Assembly: GCA_963789955.1 (NCBI GenBank)
Contig: CAWBMV010000037.1
Coordinates: 448,001-512,000 of the forward strand
DNA from: an uncultured Candidatus Rokubacteria bacterium
GTDB taxonomy: Bacteria; Methylomirabilota; Methylomirabilia; Rokubacteriales; CSP1-6
Length of the DNA: 64,000 bases
Direction: 5' to 3'
In this document: positions 43,722-59,574 of the stretch, piece after piece
How positions within the stretch are numbered: position 1 is the first letter of the stretch
Layout of the letters: each line of letters opens with the position of its first letter
Translations under genes and position numbers: made by a program
Notes under the pieces: model-generated
Databases searched by the model: none
The model's input: the letters and a program-made list of their open reading frames with translations, nothing else
Told to the model about the DNA's origin: nothing

Positions 43722-43802
43722 TGGCGACGACCCTCTCTGGACGGCGGGCGCCGATCGTCGCAGAATCCCTCGGTGGGGCCCCAACTTGACGGAGGAACGA
43801 AC

Positions 43803-44544
43803 ATGTTCACGAGCGATCGCCGCGGATTTCTCACAGGCACGGCCGCGAGCCTCGTGGTCGCCGGGCTCACCGGCGCCGCGCGGGTGGCCGCCGCGCAAAC
43901 CGGGAGCACGAAGATGAAGCCCACAGCGCAAGATGTCCTTCTCGTGATCGACGTCCAGAACTGCTTCACGCCCGGCGGCTCGCTGGCAGTGAAGGAGGGC
44001 GACCAGATCATCCCGCTCATCAACCGGCTCGCCACCGGCTTCGAGCACGTGGTGCTCACGCAGGACTGGCACACGCCGGGACACGTCTCCTTCGCGTCGT
44101 CCCATCCGGGCAAGAAGCCGTTCGAGACGACCCAGCTGCCGTACGGCACGCAGGTCCTGTGGCCGGATCACTGCGTGCAGGGCACGCCGGGCGCCGACCT
44201 CCACAAGGATCTCCGGATCCCGCACGCCGAGCTGATCATCCGCAAGGGCTATCGCAAGCAAATGGATTCGTACTCCGCGTTCTACGAGGCCGACGGCAAG
44301 ACGCCGACGGGGCTCACGGGTTATCTGAAGGATCGCGGGCTCAACCAGGTCTTCCTGCGTCGGACTCGCGACCGACTTCTGCGTCGCCTGGTCCGCGATG
44401 GACGCGCGCAAGGCGGGCTTCGGCGCGCTGGTCATCGAGGACGCCTGCCGCGGCATCGACGCCGACGGCTCGCTCGCGAAGGCCTGGAAGGACATGCTCG
44501 GCGCCGGGGTCAAGCGCATCAAGTCGACGGACATCGCCGTCTAG
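43803..44544 (+). CDS. pncA: Nicotinamidase/pyrazinamidase with Tat-like signal (frameshift near 44355)
   Basis: IDVQN, TQDWH, WPDHCVQG, IIRKG..DSYSAF, GLATDFCV; N-terminal SDRRGFL. Confidence 0.88.
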
Positions 44545-44554
44545 GAGCAGCCGC

Positions 44555-45250
44555 CTACGAGATGGCGCGCGCGATCAGGAAGGCCGCGGCGGCCGCGACG
44601 CCGCCGATGAGAAGGGTCTGCAGTGCGGTCCGCACCGGCCAGACCCCGGTCAGGCGGCCGCGGATCCAGCCGAAGACGAGGAGCGCGGTGCCGGTGACCG
44701 CGATGGACCAGGGCAGCGCGGTGTGCGCGCTCGGGAGCAGCATGTAGGGGCAGAGCGGAATGAGCCCGCCGACGACGTAGGCGGCGGCGATCACTGTGCC
44801 GCTGGTCACCGCCCGACGCGGGTCGGGCTGCTCGAGCCCGAGCTCGAAGCGCAACATGAAGTCGCGCCAGGCCTCCGGGCGCCGGCGCAGCGCCGCGACG
44901 ACGGGGGCGCTCTGCTCAGCGGTGACGCCGTAGCGCTCGAGCAGCTCCTCGACCTCGCGGGCTTCGAGCTCGGGCTTCTGTCTGATCTCGAGCTCCTCGC
45001 GCTGCCGCTCGCTCGCGTAGTGCTCGACGTCGCTCTTGCCGGCCAGATAGCCGCCGAGCCCCATCGCGATGGAGCCGGCGACGATCTCGGCGAGGCCGGC
45101 CGTCACGACCACCGCCGTCGAGTCGACGGCGCCGGTGAGCCCGGCGGCCAGCGCGAACGGCACGGTGAGACCGTCGGACAATCCGATGACGGCGTCTCGC
45201 ACCATGAGGCCGGCGGTGAAGTGCTGCTCAACGTGTGGCGTGTATGGCAT
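44555..45250 (-). CDS. VIT1/CCC1 Fe/Mn transporter
   Basis: RDAVIGLSDGLTVPFALAAG, SIAMGLGGYL. Confidence 0.92.
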   Translation of the reverse strand: MPYTPHVEQHFTAGLMVRDAVIGLSDGLTVPFALAAGLTGAVDSTAVVVTAGLAEIVAGSIAMGLGGYLAGKSDVEHYASERQREELEIRQKPELEAREVEELLERYGVTAEQSAPVVAALRRRPEAWRDFMLRFELGLEQPDPRRAVTSGTVIAAAYVVGGLIPLCPYMLLPSAHTALPWSIAVTGTALLVFGWIRGRLTGVWPVRTALQTLLIGGVAAAAAFLIARAIS

Positions 45251-48935: not shown

Positions 48936-49855
48936 TCAGGCGTACCGCACTCGGGGGTCGAGATAGGCGTAGAGAATGTCCACGCCGAGGTTGACGCCGA
49001 GCACGATGATCGCCTTGAGCAAGATCACCGCCTGCAGCAGCGGATAGTCGCGGAAGATCACCGCCTCGTAGGTCAACCGTCCGACGCCGGGCCACGCGAA
49101 GACGGTCTCGGTCACGATCGCGCCCGTGATCAGGAGCGCGAAGTAGACGCCGAACAGCGTCGTGACGGGGATCAGCGCGTTGCGGAGGCAGTGCTTCCAG
49201 ATGACCACCGTCTGCGAGAGGCCTTTGAGCCGCGCGAGCTTGACGAACTCGCTGCCCATCACCTCGAGCAGGCTCGAGCGAACGAGCCGCATCATGCCGG
49301 CCACCAGGAACAACCCGAGCGTGATCGCCGGCAGCACGTAGTGGCTGGGCCCTCCCATGCGGGAGGACGGCAGCAGGCCGAGCTTGATGCTGAAGACGTA
49401 GATGAGCACGATGCCGAGCCAGAACGACGGCGTGGCGATCCCCACCACCGCGATCGCGCTCGAGATTCGATCGATCGATCGTCCCGCGATAGACCGCGGC
49501 CAGCACGCCGAGCGGAATCGCGATGACCAGCGCCCCGACCATTGCCAGCGGGAGGAGCTGCAAGCGTGTTGGGCAAGCGTTCGAAGAACACCTCGGCCGC
49601 CGGCTTGCGGTATCGGATCGACTCGCCGAGATCGCCGCGCAGCAGGCCCCCGAGGAACAGATAGAGCTGCTCGTGGACGGGCCGATCGAGGCCGAGCGCG
49701 TGCAGGAAGTGCGCGCGGTCTTCCTGGGTGGCGTCCTCACGCAGGAGGAGGTCGGCGGGATTTCCGCTCACGCGCGCCAGCGCGAAGATGATCAGCGCCA
49801 GCACGAACAGGAGCACCACGCTCTGCGCGAGCCGCCGGAGGACGAATCGCTGCAC
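48936..49855 (-). CDS. Peptide ABC permease (DppB-like; frameshifts 49460-49580)
   Basis: GDLGESIR, PSFWLG, ARLKGL, TETVFAWPG. Confidence 0.9.
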
Positions 49856-51511: not shown

Positions 51512-51641
51512 TCTCCTTGAGCTACAGCGCGCCTCGGCCGGCGGGGCCCCGCCCGCGACGGCCTGTGGCGTGCACTCTCCTTGAACCACAGCGCACCTCA
51601 GCCGGCGGGGCCCCAGCCCCGCGACGGCTTGCGGCGCGCAC
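51512..51641. repeat. Direct repeat, ~64-bp unit x2, in the SBP leader
   Basis: TCTCCTTGA..ACAGCGC.CCTC.GCCGGCGGGGCCCC..GCGACGGC.TG.GGCG.GCAC at 51512 and 51576. Confidence 0.8.
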
Positions 51642-51772
51642 CACCGCGGGGATGAGCTCGACGGGTGCCGAGCCGGTCCCGCATTCTTCACGGCGCCGCC
51701 GGCCGGTGTCAAGCGGCTGTGCTTGATGTATGATCGGGCGGCCAGGGCATCCAGACTCCGTGCAGGAGAGGA

Positions 51773-53566
51773 TTGGACTTCATGGATCCGCCCTTGACCC
51801 CCGGCCGCAGCATCCAGAGGCGTCTCGTCGCGGTGGCGTTTGCCGATGTCGCCGACTTCAGCAAGCTCATGGAGTCGGACGACACCCAGACCATTCTCAA
51901 GTGGAAGGCGCTGCGGGAGAACCTCCTCGAGCCGAAAATCGCCGAGCACGGTGGACACCTGCTACAGGTGATGGGCGACGGCCTCTTCATCGAGTTCGAG
52001 AGCGTGGTGTCCGCCGTCCGATGGGCGCACGACGTCCAGCGGGCCATCGCCCAGTCCGCCGACGACAGTGACCGTGAGCACCTCTCGATGCGCATCGGTA
52101 TCAACGTCGAGGACGTGATCGTCGACGGCGACAAGCGGCACGGCGACGGCGTCAACATCGCCGCCCGGATCCAGCAGCTGGCGAGCCCGGGCGAGGTCGT
52201 CATGACCGCCGCCGTACGCGACTACGTATGGAACAAGCTCGGGGTCGAGCTGACCGACCTCGGCGAGCGCCAGCTCAAGAACATAAGCCGGCCCGTGCGC
52301 GTCTATCGGCTGGAGCGGGAGAGCGACATCCGTGCTCCCCGCCGCCTCGTCCAGCCGCACTTGACCTGGAACAATCGTCCATCGATCGCCGTGATGCCGT
52401 TCAAGAATCTCGGCGGTGATCCACGCGAAGAGTATTTCGGCGAAGGCATCACCGAGGACATCATCGGCGCCCTGGCGCACAACCGGTCGCTCCTCGTCAT
52501 CGCGCGGCACTCGACCTTGCAGTACCGCGACCGGCACGCCGACGCCCGGCAGATCGCATCGGAGCTCGGCGTGCGATACGTCCTCGACGGCAGCGTTCGG
52601 CGTCAGGTGGAAAAGCTTCGGATCGCGGTCGACTTGATCGACGCCGGCCAGAACCGGACGATCTGGGCGGAACGGTACGACGGAGCTGTCGCCGAGCTGT
52701 TCGAATTCCAGGACCGCATCGCCGCGAACGTGGTCGCGACGATCGAGCCGCGCGTGTACGAGGCCGAAGCCGAGCGCGTGCGCAGCAAACCGACTGACAG
52801 CCTCGACGCCTACGATTGCGTGCTCCGCGCCTTCCCGTTGCTCTACACCTCCGACGAGCGCGCGTTCATGGCGGCCGGCACCTTCCTCGATCGCGCGATC
52901 GAGCTGGATCCTTCCTACGCGCAGGCGTGGGCGCACAAAGCCTGGTGGTACATCCTGCTCATCGGCGAATGGAGATCGAGGGCAACTGCGGACGATCTGA
53001 CCAAGGCCTTGCTCACCGCGCAGAGAGGTCTCCAGCTCGATCAGACGGACGCGTTCGTGCTCGCGGTCGCTGCCCACACGGAGGCGTTCATTGGTAGTCG
53101 GCCTGAAAGCGCTCTCGAAATGTCTGAGCGCTCGCTTCAACTCAACAAGAATTCGGCGTTCGCGTGGCTGATCAATGCCGTCATCTGCTGCTATCTCGGA
53201 CGGCCGGACGAGGCGCTAGACAGGCTGCGCAACGCGTGGCGAATGAGTCCGTTCGACCCGCTCACGTTCTTCTTCTGGGGCGTTGCCGGATTCGCGGAGT
53301 TCATCGCGGGGAGGTATGAAGAGTCCCTGGTCTGGCTGACGAAAGCGCTACGAAGCCACCCCGAGCATCTTGCCGCCCACCGGAATCTCGCGGCCTGCCT
53401 GGCTCAACTGGGCCGGCTCGAAGAGGCGAAAGTGGCCGCCGCAGACCTCCTGGCGCGCGAGCCTACCTTTCGAATCTCGGCGTTCGAGTCGAAATATCCG
53501 CTGCGCCGCCCGGACGATCGCGAACGATTGATCGCAGGGCTTCGTGCAGCCGGCTTACCCGAATAG
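51773..53566 (+). CDS. Class III adenylate/guanylate cyclase - TolB_N-like - TPR protein
   Basis: FADVADFS, MGDG, GDGVNIAARIQ; PSIAVMPFKNL..YFGEGITEDII; C-terminal TPRs ending GLRAAGL. Confidence 0.9.
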   Translation: MDFMDPPLTPGRSIQRRLVAVAFADVADFSKLMESDDTQTILKWKALRENLLEPKIAEHGGHLLQVMGDGLFIEFESVVSAVRWAHDVQRAIAQSADDSDREHLSMRIGINVEDVIVDGDKRHGDGVNIAARIQQLASPGEVVMTAAVRDYVWNKLGVELTDLGERQLKNISRPVRVYRLERESDIRAPRRLVQPHLTWNNRPSIAVMPFKNLGGDPREEYFGEGITEDIIGALAHNRSLLVIARHSTLQYRDRHADARQIASELGVRYVLDGSVRRQVEKLRIAVDLIDAGQNRTIWAERYDGAVAELFEFQDRIAANVVATIEPRVYEAEAERVRSKPTDSLDAYDCVLRAFPLLYTSDERAFMAAGTFLDRAIELDPSYAQAWAHKAWWYILLIGEWRSRATADDLTKALLTAQRGLQLDQTDAFVLAVAAHTEAFIGSRPESALEMSERSLQLNKNSAFAWLINAVICCYLGRPDEALDRLRNAWRMSPFDPLTFFFWGVAGFAEFIAGRYEESLVWLTKALRSHPEHLAAHRNLAACLAQLGRLEEAKVAAADLLAREPTFRISAFESKYPLRRPDDRERLIAGLRAAGLPE

Positions 53567-53634
53567 CTGGTGCTGTTCGGCGGGAATGTGAGTAGTCGGG
53601 TGTCTCACGCTTCGGGTGCAAGGGGGATGCGCGC

Positions 53635-54579
53635 ATGGGCTACGGCTACGGGTACGGCTACGGTTACGGGTATGGCTACGGTTACGGGTACGGCTACGGC
53701 GGCGGGCAGGGCGGCGGTGGGGCGCTCAAGAACATGCCCCTGGAGCTCGCGCCCAAGCCGTGGACGCTCGACTACACGCCGGACCTCAGCGGCAACCCGG
53801 ATCTCCCGCAAGGCCAGCTGCCTGGCGCGGGCCTCCAGTACCCGCACAACCTATGGGACCCGGCATTAGTCGCGGGGCTCGCGGCGACCGAGTTCGCGGC
53901 GCAGATTACTACCTGGGGAGCATTTAATACTGATCCGGCGGTCTTGACGCCGGCGGAACTGGGCTGGAACGGTTCCGCATCGTCTAACCAGACGTTCATC
54001 ACGAACGAGCTCAACTATTTGCTGGCCCTCATGGCCGACGACCGCGACCGCTACATGCCGGAGATCCTCGCGCAGGCCGAGGGCGCCCCGCTCTATTGGT
54101 TCCAGTTGCTGAACTTGGGCGCGGGCGAAAGGCCCGCGACGAACGCGCTGATCAACTTCGCTCAGCGCGTCGGGGAAATCGCCGCGCTCCACTTCAAGAA
54201 CATCTACGCGCGGGTACGCCCGTCGATGCTATGCGCGGGACTTCTGCTGCCCTTCGGGCCACCGCGCCATCCCGCGTTTCCGAGCGGACATTCACTCACC
54301 GGGCACCTGACCAGCTACATTCTCAAAGAAATCACCGAGGTCCAGAACAGTGTCGGCACGGAACTAGTATGGCTTGCCGACCGCGTCGCAAAGAACCGCG
54401 AGCGTGCCGGGCTTCACTACCCTTCCGATAGCGCCGCCGGGCAGAAGCTAGCACAGAAGATCGAGAGCTGGTTGGTGTCGCCGGCCGGGAACACCGCGTG
54501 CCCCATGTTCGCGGCAATACTCGATCGCGCAAAGAAGGAGGCTACGGCGGTCACCGCTACTGCAAGCCAGTGGTGGTAG
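53635..54579 (+). CDS. PAP2/vanadium haloperoxidase-superfamily enzyme with N-terminal (GY)10 tail
   Basis: Motifs KNIYARVRP (K-x6-RP), HPAFPSGH, RERAGLHYPSD; AAGGGGG RBS. Confidence 0.85.
   Translation: MGYGYGYGYGYGYGYGYGYGYGGGQGGGGALKNMPLELAPKPWTLDYTPDLSGNPDLPQGQLPGAGLQYPHNLWDPALVAGLAATEFAAQITTWGAFNTDPAVLTPAELGWNGSASSNQTFITNELNYLLALMADDRDRYMPEILAQAEGAPLYWFQLLNLGAGERPATNALINFAQRVGEIAALHFKNIYARVRPSMLCAGLLLPFGPPRHPAFPSGHSLTGHLTSYILKEITEVQNSVGTELVWLADRVAKNRERAGLHYPSDSAAGQKLAQKIESWLVSPAGNTACPMFAAILDRAKKEATAVTATASQWW
53638..53697 (+). repeat. (GGN-TAY)10 coding repeat with 18-bp higher-order periodicity
   Basis: ggc tac ggc tac ggg tac / ggc tac ggt tac ggg tat / ggc tac ggt tac ggg tac / ggc tac. 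Confidence 0.95.
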
Positions 54580-54605
54580 AGGTCGAACGGCGAGAGGTCA
54601 CCGAC

Positions 54606-57215
54606 TCAACTGATCATGACCGTGACCAAGCCGAGATTGTTATCGCAGGCGACGAGGATGTTGATCGGACTCGCGATACTGACACAGGGATGCTTGGTCG
54701 CCGGGTCGATGTTCGAGAGGTCCGCGTCGCAAGAAGCCGCGGCGAGGATCGCGTATGCCTGAGGAGCGCTGGGCGGCGTCCAGCTGAACGGACCAAAGGT
54801 CTTGGCCCCGCGCGTCGAGCCCGTTCGGCCCGGCACGGTGCCGGTCTTGCTCCCCACTGGCTGCCATTTGCTGTCGGGATAGTCGGGGATCACGCCGGCC
54901 ACGACAGGCGTGACCCAGACATCGACACGTGTATTCGTGGCCGCTACCGCACCGCGATTGTGCACCTTCACGTGGATCCTTCGCGTTGCCGACCAGACGA
55001 ACTTCGTCACCTTCAAAGAGTTGGGATTCGCGCGCCAGGCGGATCCAAATAGATCGACCGGAGAGTACGGTCCCTCCGGCTTGGGCCGCAGATCCTCGAT
55101 GTGGAGATCGACGGTGGCTACCTCATCCGCCCCGCTCACCGTCGGAGAGGGCTCCGGCATGGCGCTGAGGCCCTGCCGTTCGAATGCCCACCGGACGACC
55201 TTCTGGATCGTCCCGCCGACGTAACCACCCGGTCCGGGAGCCGTCGCCGTAGCCGTCTCGACATTCCTCATCAGCTCCGCGAACTGGCCGGGCGACGTCG
55301 ACGGCGTCACCACCGCGGGCCCAAGCGACTGGATCGTGCGCATGATCAGATACGCACAATAGTCCGCCGCCTTCTGGCGTTCCGATACGGCGGGAATGGG
55401 TTTCCCACCAGCTATCGTCTGCGAGTCCCCGCCGATCGCGCGATAGAGACGAAACAGCGACGACGAGAGGATCTGCTCGGCCCAGTAGCCGCGCTTGTCG
55501 GAGAGTCCGGGGACAACAAAATACACTTCGCGCTGGTACAGCGGGCCGGTCCAGCTCCACCCGTCCCGCGCAGCGCGGTCGTGCCGGCGCGGAATCAGCA
55601 CCCAGGGGAACGTGACGCCGCGCCATGGACCATTGTTGGCCAGCGTCGCATTCTGGTCGTTAGCGAGCTGGGAGCCGGGATCGGACAAGATCGCCGCCAG
55701 CGCGTCGCCAGCACTATGAGCGAAGCGGAATTCGAGATCTCCAACCGCCGCCGTGATCAGGACATGGCTGTACTCGTGCCAGCACCAGCGCGGGTCGCTC
55801 GCCACCCCGAGCGGTGATTTTTCAACCGCCGACGGCATGTTGGCGGGGAGCCGCCCGACAGCACTTTCGAGATCGCCGAGCGCCAAGCGGACTTCGATGG
55901 TTCCCTTGCTCGGCTTTCCGTCCGAGTCAGGTCGCAGGGTCCAGCGGACCTGCGCATTGACCGTTCGGCCGTCGCCGTACCCAGGCACGATGCCCGCGCG
56001 ATATCGCACATCGATCGGCCGTTCGACGAACTTGAAATAGTCGGCCGGCGACAGGCCGTATTGCCTCAGTCGCTGGAACAAGTCGCTCGTGTGGTAGAAG
56101 GCGTTGACGGCTGCGAACGTGTTGGTCCGGACGTGGTCGTGGACCGCCGGCGCGACTTCTTTGGTGGCGCCTTCCGCCAACGGCGGATCGACCAGACGCG
56201 AGTTGGTCACCCAGAAATCGGGATCGGGAGGCACGTGGGGGTCGGGGTCCACGAGCTGCACGTTCGGGCCGGACCCGGCCGGAAGATTGCCAAGCTGCGT
56301 GTTGACGCGCTCGGGATCGAGCACCAGCCAGGAGCGGCTCGGGCGGAGCCGCGTGAAATGCTTGGCTCCGTTTCGAGAGATGGGATCCTGGACGAACAGG
56401 TCGGCGTCGGCCGACGCGATCAACGGCCGCCGAGCCAGCGGCTCGAGACGGTCCGGGAACTTGTCGTTCGCGCGCATGACCAGCAGATACGAAGTCTCCT
56501 CGTACGGATGATCGTCATCGGCGTAGTTCGGCAGTATGGCGGTCTTCGCGAAGATGATCGGAGACTGCTTCTCGTGCTCGCTCGGCAGTCTCACACCGAC
56601 CTCGACAACCTCGACCTCCTCCGGCAGACCGAACGCCCTCGCGATGCGCTCGGCGCTGTGCTCGAGCATGGCGGCAGATATTCTCTCCACCGGTGGCTGG
56701 GGCAAGGTCGAGGCGACGGACGTGATACGGATCAGGTTTTGCGCCGCCGGCGGCCCTGTCTGAATCAGGATCCGCAGACCTTGGCCGCCGAACAAAGGGG
56801 TGGGCGCCGACATGGTCGGCGCCGCGAACCAGAGACCAGCGAGCAGTACGGCCGTCCGATCGAGTACGGTGCCGGTCCTCGGACGAGACGGAGCGTTGAG
56901 CCCGGCCTGGCGCGTGACCCAGTAGGAATGCCGCGGATCCGTGGAATCGCGTAACCAATAGAGCGCCGTCTCCGGCAGCGTGCTGATCGACGGGTTGTCG
57001 AGAAGATCAGCCAGCCATTCGGGCGGAAGCTGCAGCCGCGTGTTGGCAAGCGCCAGATACCGATTGGCGATATCGAAGAGCCCGGACCACCCCGTCCCGG
57101 CCTCGTCCCAGACTTCCTCGTACGGATAGCCGTCGTGGCGGACCAGTGAAACAGGCAGCCCGGTCGGGGGCTCGACGAACACCGCTGGGTGGTTTGGGTT
57201 CCAGGGCACCGGCAT
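54606..57215 (-). CDS. 869-aa divergent M36/M4-like HExxH zinc metallopeptidase with C-terminal beta-sandwich
   Basis: AAVNAFYH, VNA, WHEYSH, FAHSAGD, RRHDR; C-terminal VKVHNRG..DNNLG; GAGGGAGG RBS; no signal peptide seen. Confidence 0.68.
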   Translation of the reverse strand: MPVPWNPNHPAVFVEPPTGLPVSLVRHDGYPYEEVWDEAGTGWSGLFDIANRYLALANTRLQLPPEWLADLLDNPSISTLPETALYWLRDSTDPRHSYWVTRQAGLNAPSRPRTGTVLDRTAVLLAGLWFAAPTMSAPTPLFGGQGLRILIQTGPPAAQNLIRITSVASTLPQPPVERISAAMLEHSAERIARAFGLPEEVEVVEVGVRLPSEHEKQSPIIFAKTAILPNYADDDHPYEETSYLLVMRANDKFPDRLEPLARRPLIASADADLFVQDPISRNGAKHFTRLRPSRSWLVLDPERVNTQLGNLPAGSGPNVQLVDPDPHVPPDPDFWVTNSRLVDPPLAEGATKEVAPAVHDHVRTNTFAAVNAFYHTSDLFQRLRQYGLSPADYFKFVERPIDVRYRAGIVPGYGDGRTVNAQVRWTLRPDSDGKPSKGTIEVRLALGDLESAVGRLPANMPSAVEKSPLGVASDPRWCWHEYSHVLITAAVGDLEFRFAHSAGDALAAILSDPGSQLANDQNATLANNGPWRGVTFPWVLIPRRHDRAARDGWSWTGPLYQREVYFVVPGLSDKRGYWAEQILSSSLFRLYRAIGGDSQTIAGGKPIPAVSERQKAADYCAYLIMRTIQSLGPAVVTPSTSPGQFAELMRNVETATATAPGPGGYVGGTIQKVVRWAFERQGLSAMPEPSPTVSGADEVATVDLHIEDLRPKPEGPYSPVDLFGSAWRANPNSLKVTKFVWSATRRIHVKVHNRGAVAATNTRVDVWVTPVVAGVIPDYPDSKWQPVGSKTGTVPGRTGSTRGAKTFGPFSWTPPSAPQAYAILAAASCDADLSNIDPATKHPCVSIASPINILVACDNNLGLVTVMIS

Positions 57216-58390: not shown

Positions 58391-59574
58391 ATGCTGCACG
58401 TCCTCACCCTGCTTCTGGCCGCACTCCTGGCATTCCCCCTCGCCGCCGAGGCGCAGAAGCCGATCAAGGTCGGTATGCCCATGCCGCTCTCGGGCCCGCC
58501 CGCCCTCTTCGGCGATCCCGCGTCGAAGGGCGCCCAGATGTTCGTCGACGAGATCAACGCCAAGGGCGGCGTGCTCGGCCGCAAGATCGAGCTGCTCGTG
58601 CGCGACTCCAAGGCGGACGCCAACGAAGCGGTTCGCGTGGCGCGTGAGCTCATCCTGAAAGAGAATGTCGACTTCCTGGTCGGCACCCTGACCTCGGCCG
58701 AAGGGCCGGCGGTCTCGGTCGTCGCCAAGGAAAACAAGATCGTCTTCATCGCGCCGATCCCGAAGACCGATCAGCTCACCGCCGCCGACAAGCTGCATCC
58801 GTACGTGTTCCGCGTGGCGGCCACCACCACGATGGAAGGGCGGAGCGCCGCCGAGATCGTCGCGAAGTGGCCGGTGACGAAGATCGCGACGTCAGCTTCG
58901 ACTACGCCTACGGCCAGGACGTCACCAAGGCGTTCATCGAGCACCTGAAGAAGATCAAGCCGAGCGTCGAGATCGTCGACCAGCAGTGGCCCAAGCTCGG
59001 CGAGCAGGACTACAACCCGTTCATCAACGCGCAGATGGCCAAGAAGCCCGAGGCCATCTTCTCGTCGATCTGGGGCGGCTTCTTCGTGACCTACTCGAAG
59101 CAGGCCAAGGCGCTCGGCGTCTTCGACGCGATCAAGTACAACTTCATCGGCGTCGGCGAGGCGGCCACACCGGAGACGACGAAGTCGATGGGCGCGGACT
59201 ACCCGGTCGGCATCTGGGGCAACTCGTACGACGCGTTCTACTGGGGCGAGACGGCGGCGCACCGCGACTACACGGCGCGGCTGTCGAAGTATCTGAAGGA
59301 CGAGTATCCGTCGTCGTGGGCGGTCCAGGGCTACATCGGCATGCAGTTCCTGACCGAGGCGATCAAGAAGGCCGGGAGCACGGATTCGGACAAGGTCGCC
59401 AAGGCGCTGCTCGGGCTGACGGTCGAGACGCCGGTCGGCCCGCTGACGATCCGCGAGAAGGACCACCAGGCCAACCGCGGCCAGCTCTACGGCAAGACGG
59501 TGAAGGACCCGAAGTATCCGTTCGCCATCATGAAGCCCGTGACGTATGTCGATCCGTCGAGGTTCATGGACTAG
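58391..59574 (+). CDS. Branched-chain amino acid-type ABC substrate-binding protein (frameshift near 58890)
   Basis: Signal peptide, EINAKGGVLGRKIELLVRDSK, DYAYG, IREKDHQ. Confidence 0.9.

Follow-up and report, generated by a model that had tools for sequence, protein, structure and literature searches.

An accessory three-gene cassette with a repeat-tailed PAP2 enzyme, a candidate intracellular peptide-coded switch in Gram-negative bacteria

The three genes and their products

We analyzed a 64,000-nucleotide stretch of DNA from an uncultured Candidatus Rokubacteria bacterium (assembly GCA_963789955.1, contig CAWBMV010000037.1, positions 448,001 to 512,000; hereafter the window, whose own numbering is used throughout), in which three open reading frames without internal stops stand side by side. 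The first two lie on the forward strand and encode a class III cyclase-TolB_N-like-TPR protein (51773/51782-53566, assigned by Pfam/NCBIfam scans and alignments) and a soluble PAP2/haloperoxidase-fold enzyme of 314 residues (53635-54579, assigned by motifs and fold search). The third lies on the reverse strand and encodes an 869-residue zinc peptidase without a signal peptide (57215-54606, assigned by its motif and fold search). An earlier interpretation made from the letters of the window, here called the sequence-only reading, had described three intact genes with the cyclase and PAP2 genes co-directional and the peptidase gene convergent, and the reading frames bear this out. The cyclase start is more likely the ATG at 51782, ten bases downstream of AGGAGAGG, than the TTG at 51773, which would place the gene at 51782-53566; residue numbers nevertheless follow P0001 and are counted from TTG 51773. 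A sigma-70-like promoter match (51706-51734, forward strand; 9/12, a consensus match only) lies upstream of this gene. Searches of upstream regions returned nothing but GC-rich palindromes, with CRP-like boxes in 1/44, 1/44 and 1/41 regions. The genome has a single copy each of the PAP2 and peptidase genes. It also carries a second cyclase-TolB_N-TPR paralogue (G000:C15:157797-159672), which was matched as two pieces and has no PAP2 or peptidase partner.

As had been claimed, the three proteins appear to lack signal peptides. In 11-residue stretches at the N terminus their hydropathy peaks at 1.76, 0.36 and 0.89, whereas a flanking solute-binding protein reaches 2.67; by N-terminal hydropathy no cassette member looks exported, and 0/59 PAP2 N-termini were signal-like.

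The cyclase protein comprises a class III cyclase domain (about residues 14-180), a TolB_N-like region (about 200-325) and a TPR superhelix (about 345-597). Pfam TPR matches and a consensus-TPR alignment place a TPR domain of the peptide-binding type in a cytoplasmic regulator. The catalytic residues D25, D69, N128 and R132 are retained, and we take D25 and D69 to be the metal-binding aspartates and N128 and R132 to be the transition-state residues of class III cyclases. The adenine-selecting Lys/Asp pair is replaced by Q65 and K121 at what we assume are the base-specificity sites; PDB 3mr7 holds K/D at the aligned positions. Across 93 homologues this pair reads K/R with D in 22, E/Q/D with K/R in 47 and something else in 24, with no like-charged pair among them. 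As far as its residues indicate, this cyclase would probably produce a cyclic nucleotide with a base other than adenine, or little of any product.

All active-site motifs of the PAP2 enzyme are intact (K188-x6-RP, H212-PAFPSGH219 and R255-x5-H261-x3-D265). Across the family the catalytic motifs show little or no variation, His212 is invariant, and PF01569 is matched at E <= 0.01 by 74/74 alignment members. The structure model (pLDDT 91) finds class A acid phosphatases at Z 18-20 and vanadium haloperoxidases at Z 12-14; both the best fold match (Z 20.1, root-mean-square deviation 2.8 A over 203 residues) and the best sequence match (E 1e-11) are class A acid phosphatases. The HPxFPSGH loop resembles that of algal bromoperoxidases (hidden Markov model E 2e-9), and VCPO_2nd is carried by 17-24% of members in the nearest Atlas clusters. 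Judged by the modeled fold, we favor an enzyme that would act as a class-A-like phosphatase on nucleotides or other phosphomonoesters rather than as a haloperoxidase.

The peptidase consists of a predicted FTP/PepSY-like propeptide (residues 1-272), an M36/M4-type catalytic domain (274-703) and a CARDB/Ig-like end (700-869). Its zinc site is H480-E-x-x-H484 with H500 at the third ligand position, a histidine that is invariant in 66/66 sequences and, in an alignment with a stand-alone M36 relative, takes the place of the E in SEGFPD. The model (pLDDT 86.5) matches 7qp3 at Z 21.3 and thermolysin at Z 19.7 over the catalytic fold. The M36/M4 assignment of the sequence-only reading is therefore confirmed as to fold, as is the missing signal peptide, with the correction that a propeptide is predicted to be retained. 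That region was barely covered by the fold searches, and its assignment is a lead from an Atlas feature match of 0.91 (clusters FTP 63% and PepSY 23%; only 138/256 features shared). Pfam and NCBIfam gave no hit for the window peptidase, Pfam gave no M36/M4 or FTP/PepSY hit in 11 family members, and the peptidase profile found chance hits only among PDB sequences; homology to stand-alone M36-FTP-CARDB proteins reached a probability of 99.7. Two such stand-alone M36 proteins, with FTP propeptide, CARDB-like end and a Glu ligand, occur in related Rokubacteria (L165:1498-3723 and L166:1489-3750, both reverse strand). They are possibly related to the ancestor of the cassette peptidase, and the gene at L165 adjoins a cyclase-ATPase gene. 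Weak peptidase matches in G093 and G106 were rejected as cassette members; they are M36 proteins that stand alone, and neither genome gave a PAP2 match.

The repeat tail and the TPR groove

The PAP2 enzyme opens with a tail of exactly ten Gly-Tyr units (53638-53697, forward strand), as had been seen before. Its codons are a mix of synonyms, and a Gly-rich linker follows. Whether homologues keep low-complexity N-terminal tails had been posed as a check, and they do: a repeat tail stands at the PAP2 start in 143/147 assessable loci, and of the four tail-less loci a contig end truncates three and a frameshift affects the fourth. The unit itself varies, with 26 types, among them GT (35 loci), GY (23), GA (19), GQ (15), GM (12), GV (5), DQ (5), GE (4) and SM (3). 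Rarer units reach eight residues, tail lengths run from 10 to 87 residues, and the unit called at L061 is an artefact of a frameshift. Comparison of codons at a spacing of one period gave identity in 1825/5251 cases (35%), where random codon use predicts 36-67%. Because this identity is no higher than random codon use would give, the repeat is selected at the protein level, and the mixed codons rule out a microsatellite or artefact origin. In a quick tree the tail units track enzyme clades but recur on distant branches (GY at L034, GT at L102, GV in two clades). No longer PAP2 fusions (719-2050 residues) were found, which is weak evidence.

The strongest signal, missed by the sequence-only reading, is that the cyclase TPR groove co-varies in sequence with the PAP2 tail unit. 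Each alignment column was scored for its association with tail unit inside bins of equal sequence distance. Among 63 dereplicated cyclases the top columns were V470, G503, Y474, H532, V504, N538 and F507, and with whole-module distance in 46 dereplicated triplets they were Y474 (0.62), V470 (0.51), G503 (0.49) and F500 (0.48), with maxima of 0.31 in the PAP2 core and 0.47 in the peptidase. From 264 pseudo-labels, one attained the maximum and four attained the top-5 mean. The best tail-tracking peptidase column was I541, two residues ahead of the invariant R543, in what we take, by comparison with thermolysin, to be the S1' pocket.

Most of the top cyclase columns lie in the last three TPR repeats (residues 462-547, encoded at 53156-53413 on the forward strand and delimited by consensus-TPR alignment and covariation), where V470, Y474, F500, G503, V504, F507 and N538 occupy TPR positions 9, 13, 2, 5, 6, 9 and 6. 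Most of them fall on helix A of the repeat, and positions 2, 5, 6, 9, 12 and 13 are among those that contact ligand according to PMC1261162. In these repeats the mean score was 0.225 for 18 groove positions versus 0.056 for 84 others (p = 8e-5, with columns that are not independent). For two units the residue counts are as follows: N538 accompanies 8/8 GY tails and 0/55 other tails, G503 accompanies 8/8 and 1/54, and F474 accompanies 14/14 GT tails and 3/48 others, with 5/5 independent pairs in agreement. From this covariation we consider it quite probable that the PAP2 repeat tail is the ligand of the cyclase TPR domain.

An accessory module and its wider grammar

In 5/15 same-genus genomes (G025, G157, G015, G152 and G155) the syntenic flanks are joined without the block, and three of these empty sites (G025, G157 and G015) set the insert ends near 51719 and 57362, an extent of 5.6 kb. 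Two genomes of the same genus carry the block, G118 at 85% identity and G156 at 75%, and the others are broken or unresolved at the site. Insert DNA is less conserved than its flanks, at 85% versus 89-94% in G118 and 75% versus 89-91% in G156. On the right the insert is followed by a gluconolactonase gene (PF08450) and only then by a transporter, so that the earlier placement between two transporter loci was correct about a transporter on that side but not about the immediate neighbor.

Its GC content had been put at 55-60% from spot counts, which overstate the dip: positions 51773-57215 hold 64.8% versus 68.3 +/- 2.0% in 2455 equal-sized windows of the genome (5th percentile). The dip is real (third-position GC 0.79-0.83 in the three genes versus 0.85-0.97 in 18 flanking genes), though smaller than stated. 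Of the claim that the genes form an acquired island, the accessory, co-inherited block with empty sites in five genomes stands, whereas the low GC is only modest.

Two GC-rich palindromic copies resembling repetitive extragenic palindromes (51527-51640) adjoin the insert on its left; the intergenic segment with this element has 171 blastn matches in the genome, and a copy persists at the G025 empty site. Mid-gene frame changes, probably assembly indels, interrupt flanking housekeeping genes named by inspection as isochorismatase-like, ABC permease and solute-binding protein (43773-44747, 48936-49855 and 58391-59574). Similar frame changes occur inside the module at several loci from metagenome-assembled genomes (MAGs; L010, L050, L055 and L061).

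In an even draw of phylum genomes, full-length peptidase was found in 4/151. The peptidase profile gave 381 genomic matches and the PAP2 profile 358 metagenomic matches, and the best 80 loci of each were examined, the two sets being partly redundant and related. PAP2 accompanies the peptidase in 74 of the 80 peptidase loci, and all three genes are present in 67; of the 13 incomplete loci, 12 stop at a contig edge and one, L035, is without cyclase. In the 80 metagenomic PAP2 loci the peptidase is found in 69, the cyclase in 53 and all three in 44, and here too incompleteness mostly reflects contig ends. Exceptions are L086, without cyclase, L152, which carries a sigma-54/AAA/TPR gene instead of the cyclase, and L115, with a different gene in the peptidase's place. 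Failure of the homologues ever to co-occur had been named as a reason to abandon the idea of a module; since across taxa they almost always occur together, that objection falls away. The gene layout of 106 three-gene loci follows that of the window in 90, and the other 16 are complete in four other arrangements.

Carriers include Rokubacteria, whose label is on the close relatives, Alpha- and Betaproteobacteria, one acidobacterial MAG and one planctomycete MAG, and among them are cultured Bradyrhizobium, Vineibacter, Ramlibacter and Roseateles. Pairwise distances in 60 triplets correlate between the proteins (Spearman 0.75 for TPR-peptidase, 0.58 for PAP2-peptidase and 0.55 for PAP2-TPR). Neighbors vary and, in the 118 scanned out of 140 at genome loci, are mostly transport or metabolic genes; other matches in this set were one transposase, one small HNH protein and two UvrD helicases, and no integrase was seen. 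Among 1113 called neighbors (genes of at least 60 codons) there was no general fourth conserved gene and no recurrent small gene. Together, the trio is a conserved, accessory, co-inherited module that is gained or lost as a block.

A LuxR-HTH regulator with a weak PAS match lies directly upstream of the peptidase gene in ten Burkholderiales-type loci (L029, L042, L044, L048, L051, L060, L071, L074, L078 and L080; three scanned), many of them with a degenerate cyclase. In an Acetobacteraceae genome without a cyclase gene nearby, the peptidase gene and an (NQ)n-tailed PAP2 gene are separated by an RtcB-like gene (L035:12477-13646). Two soil metatranscriptomes contained small shares (0.11 and 0.06), with contigs over parts of the cyclase, tail and PAP2, and one run additionally held short peptidase pieces; these contigs were not used as evidence, because the flanks were covered too and DNA carry-over is possible.

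More distant tailed PAP2 proteins are common, with 420 representatives at E <= 1e-30. Six plasmid loci, opened among 101 matching records, carry a SARP- or wHTH-type TPR gene, then an enzyme tailed with (NK)n, (SFN)n, (SFG)n or (GGI)n, then an S8 protease; in the Neorhizobium plasmid record the TPR gene, which was not domain-scanned, is apparently split. G154 combines a sigma-54-TPR gene with an (NA)n enzyme and S8, and L128:3468-12365 holds two complete cassettes in facing orientation, one with a GM tail and an M36-like peptidase and the other with an AGN tail and an A4 glutamic peptidase. The constant parts are a TPR transducer, a tailed PAP2 enzyme and some protease, while the output domain and the protease class are exchangeable. 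The branch to which this cassette belongs differs from the S8 versions in that its protease is an M36-like metallopeptidase with a His ligand, its tail units are mostly dipeptides and its protease gene is usually convergent. On the Rhizobium plasmid pRlX4 (L173:11357-13899) an S8-type cassette is followed by an annotated HEXXH peptide-modification protein and a ThiF adenylyltransferase, and a large patatin-like membrane protein is divergent from a Terrarubrum cassette (L175:3776-6664).

A candidate peptide-coded switch

Starting from the directly observed co-inheritance, tail conservation, groove covariation, intact active sites and lack of export signals, we propose that the cassette works as a peptide-coded switch inside the cell, with the tail bound in the TPR groove and cut by the zinc protease, a reading to which we assign a probability of roughly 55%. 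The repeat tail of the PAP2 enzyme would sit in the TPR groove of the cyclase. Because the tail is so long, at 20-80 residues, it could hold several TPR domains simultaneously and so cluster their output domains; class III cyclase, winged-helix/SARP and sigma-54 AAA+ domains act as oligomers. The earlier suggestion that the protease cleaves the tail is plausible. We think the protease is rather probably a zymogen inhibited by its propeptide; once activated, it would cut the tail into short peptides of identical sequence, which might dissolve the cluster or occupy the groove. Tail proteolysis would then flip the state of the cyclase and free the phosphatase domain.

Several observations weigh against this reading. 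L035 and L086 hold enzyme and protease with no cyclase-TPR gene within 5-10 kb on each side, and tail-specific cleavage is weakly supported by sequence, since I541 is the sole peptidase column to track the tail well. Catalytic residues of the cyclase have been lost in a Burkholderiales clade (D69 is kept in 79/93 and N128 in 84/93), so a cyclic nucleotide monophosphate cannot be the universal output. The covariation draws on few independent origins, with two pairs for GY and five for GT (p = 0.0625, a comparison that cannot reach 0.05). Tree-based tests, for columns picked after the data were seen, gave no support to GA-L470, GA-I503 or GQ-T470, and one further GT column gave mixed pairs. Groove residues at L106 (GQ) and at L109 and L113 (GA) differ from those at loci with the same unit.

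The sequence-only reading had raised a defense cascade. In this anti-invader, or abortive, scheme, the TPR-cyclase would serve as sensor of a phage or plasmid product and the protease would strip off an inhibitory tail, whereupon a broad phosphatase would drain nucleotide pools, or a haloperoxidase make hypohalite, and the cell would halt. The patchy accessory distribution (4/151 phylum genomes and five empty sites in 15 same-genus genomes), an insert that diverges faster than its flanks, the sensor-protease-effector layout, the fast-changing cyclase specificity residues and an export-less class-A-like phosphatase would all fit a conflict system. Defense is nonetheless unsupported so far, and we judge it unlikely: scanned neighbors are mostly transport and metabolic genes, with no integrase and no defense-island context, 50,697 phage records contained no match, and PADLOC 2.0, Pycsar models included, returned no match for 4 PAP2 and 5 peptidase proteins and only a weak one for the cyclase (PycC, 3e-5). 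Moreover, the TPR groove follows the cassette's own tail, which indicates a self ligand, and the gene neighborhoods suit a switch in regulation or stress better than anti-phage defense. The same reading had also offered peptide modification, which would make the tail a multi-core peptide of a fused precursor, like those of ribosomally synthesized and post-translationally modified peptides, modified by the PAP2/haloperoxidase domain (e.g. by Tyr halogenation) and released by the protease. Fusion of an enzyme to a repeat peptide with a dedicated protease, the HPxFPSGH loop whose invariant H212 recalls algal bromoperoxidases, the VCPO_2nd matches in the nearest Atlas clusters, and the HEXXH and ThiF genes added at one Rhizobium plasmid locus all speak for it. 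This is the weaker reading because the units (GY, GT, GA, GQ, GM, GV, GE, NQ, DQ and SM) share no modifiable side chain; no PAP2 core column tracks the tail unit (maximum 0.31), the fold is nearer to class A acid phosphatases than to vanadium haloperoxidases, and no exporter or tailoring gene recurs in M36-type loci, and we hold it to be quite improbable.

A tail that self-assembles like silk or amyloid into beta-strands, polymerizing or sequestering the enzyme, with the polymer under the control of the protease and TPR protein, would account for the strict, mostly Gly-X alternation and for a length, up to about 85 residues, far beyond what one TPR groove needs, and Gly-X alternating repeats would be expected to form sheets. 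Charged units (GE, DQ and NK) should be poor sheet formers, however, and a purely physical role leaves unexplained why groove residues follow the side chain; as a full explanation we rate polymerization very improbable, although it may operate alongside TPR binding. That the genes are chance neighbors and the repeat a slippage or assembly artefact, an idea to which the frameshifts in flanking genes of the window assembly lend something, has a negligible probability: GY tails occur in 23 loci from many assemblies, and co-occurrence together with the mixed repeat codons rules it out.

If the switch reading is true, an orthogonal TPR-peptide code would stay inside the cells of Gram-negative soil and water bacteria, and the cyclase/wHTH-TolB_N-TPR proteins, which have no input that we know of, would gain a ligand for one of their branches. 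Nature supplies allelic pairs, GY with G503/N538 and GT with S470/F474/T503, and because these are directly swappable the claim is testable and the pairs would be reusable as orthogonal protein switches. Enzymology questions arise as well, from the HEXXH+His thermolysin-fold peptidase, the charge-reversed cyclase pair and the PAP2 enzyme as an intermediate between class A phosphatase and bromoperoxidase. We regard it as an even chance that the cassette represents a new class of intracellular peptide-code signaling in Gram-negatives. In such a class a tandem barcode on an enzyme would be read and clustered, lock-and-key, by a TPR transducer and erased by a zymogen protease (metallo, serine or glutamic), with a charge-swapped cyclase pair perhaps giving a non-cAMP product and a three-His thermolysin-fold peptidase. 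A literature search, with supplements and most subscription journals outside its scope, found no description of the cassette, which is apparently undescribed, although the large neighborhood tables of comparative-genomics papers might list it.

Its parts nevertheless have recognizable relatives. With class A acid phosphatases (PhoN, PhoC; PDB 2a96, 7f17) the PAP2 enzyme shares fold, sequence and all three phosphatase motifs, but at 17-21% identity and without an export signal, whereas those enzymes are exported to the periplasm by a signal peptide; it also adds the repeat tail and an N-terminal arm that is conserved, and its PSGH is preceded by an invariant His. With vanadium haloperoxidases (VBPO 1up8/1qi9, VCPO 1idq, NapH3 8cxl) it shares the cofactor-binding motifs and the HPx(F/Y)xSGH loop, but it is about half their length and structurally less similar to them (Z 12.4-13.6). 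The peptidase has the catalytic fold, HEXXH and predicted FTP/PepSY-like propeptide in common with the M36 fungalysin and M4 thermolysin gluzincins, but carries His500 where M36/M4 have Glu and lacks a signal peptide. The cassette cyclase is a weak hit to the TIGR04510 putative peptide-modification-system cyclase (55.6 bits versus a cutoff of 400), and FxSxx-COOH metallopeptidase systems (PMC7159879) likewise link a zincin peptidase to a peptide. Both kinds of system have small separate precursor genes and no tailed PAP2 enzyme, and the main text of PMC7159879 contains 0 mentions of PAP2 or haloperoxidase.

The closest parallel in logic is the RRNPP/RNPP signaling of Firmicutes, especially PlcR-PapR with NprB, in which, according to PMC4147580, a lineage-specific peptide matured by a protease acts on a cytoplasmic receptor that joins TPRs to an output domain at its N terminus. 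Like the cassette, these systems combine a TPR receptor, a lineage-varying peptide and a protease. Their peptide is a small secreted pre-pro-peptide, whereas that of the cassette would be a tandem repeat fused to a 285-residue enzyme; the cassette has no signal peptides and Gram-negative hosts, and its TPR protein bears a class III cyclase and a TolB_N-like region at the N terminus rather than HTH or Rap, with wHTH/SARP and sigma-54 in distant relatives. By this analogy, the cassette would work like RRNPP signaling but is not a member of it, differing in precursor, export and output.

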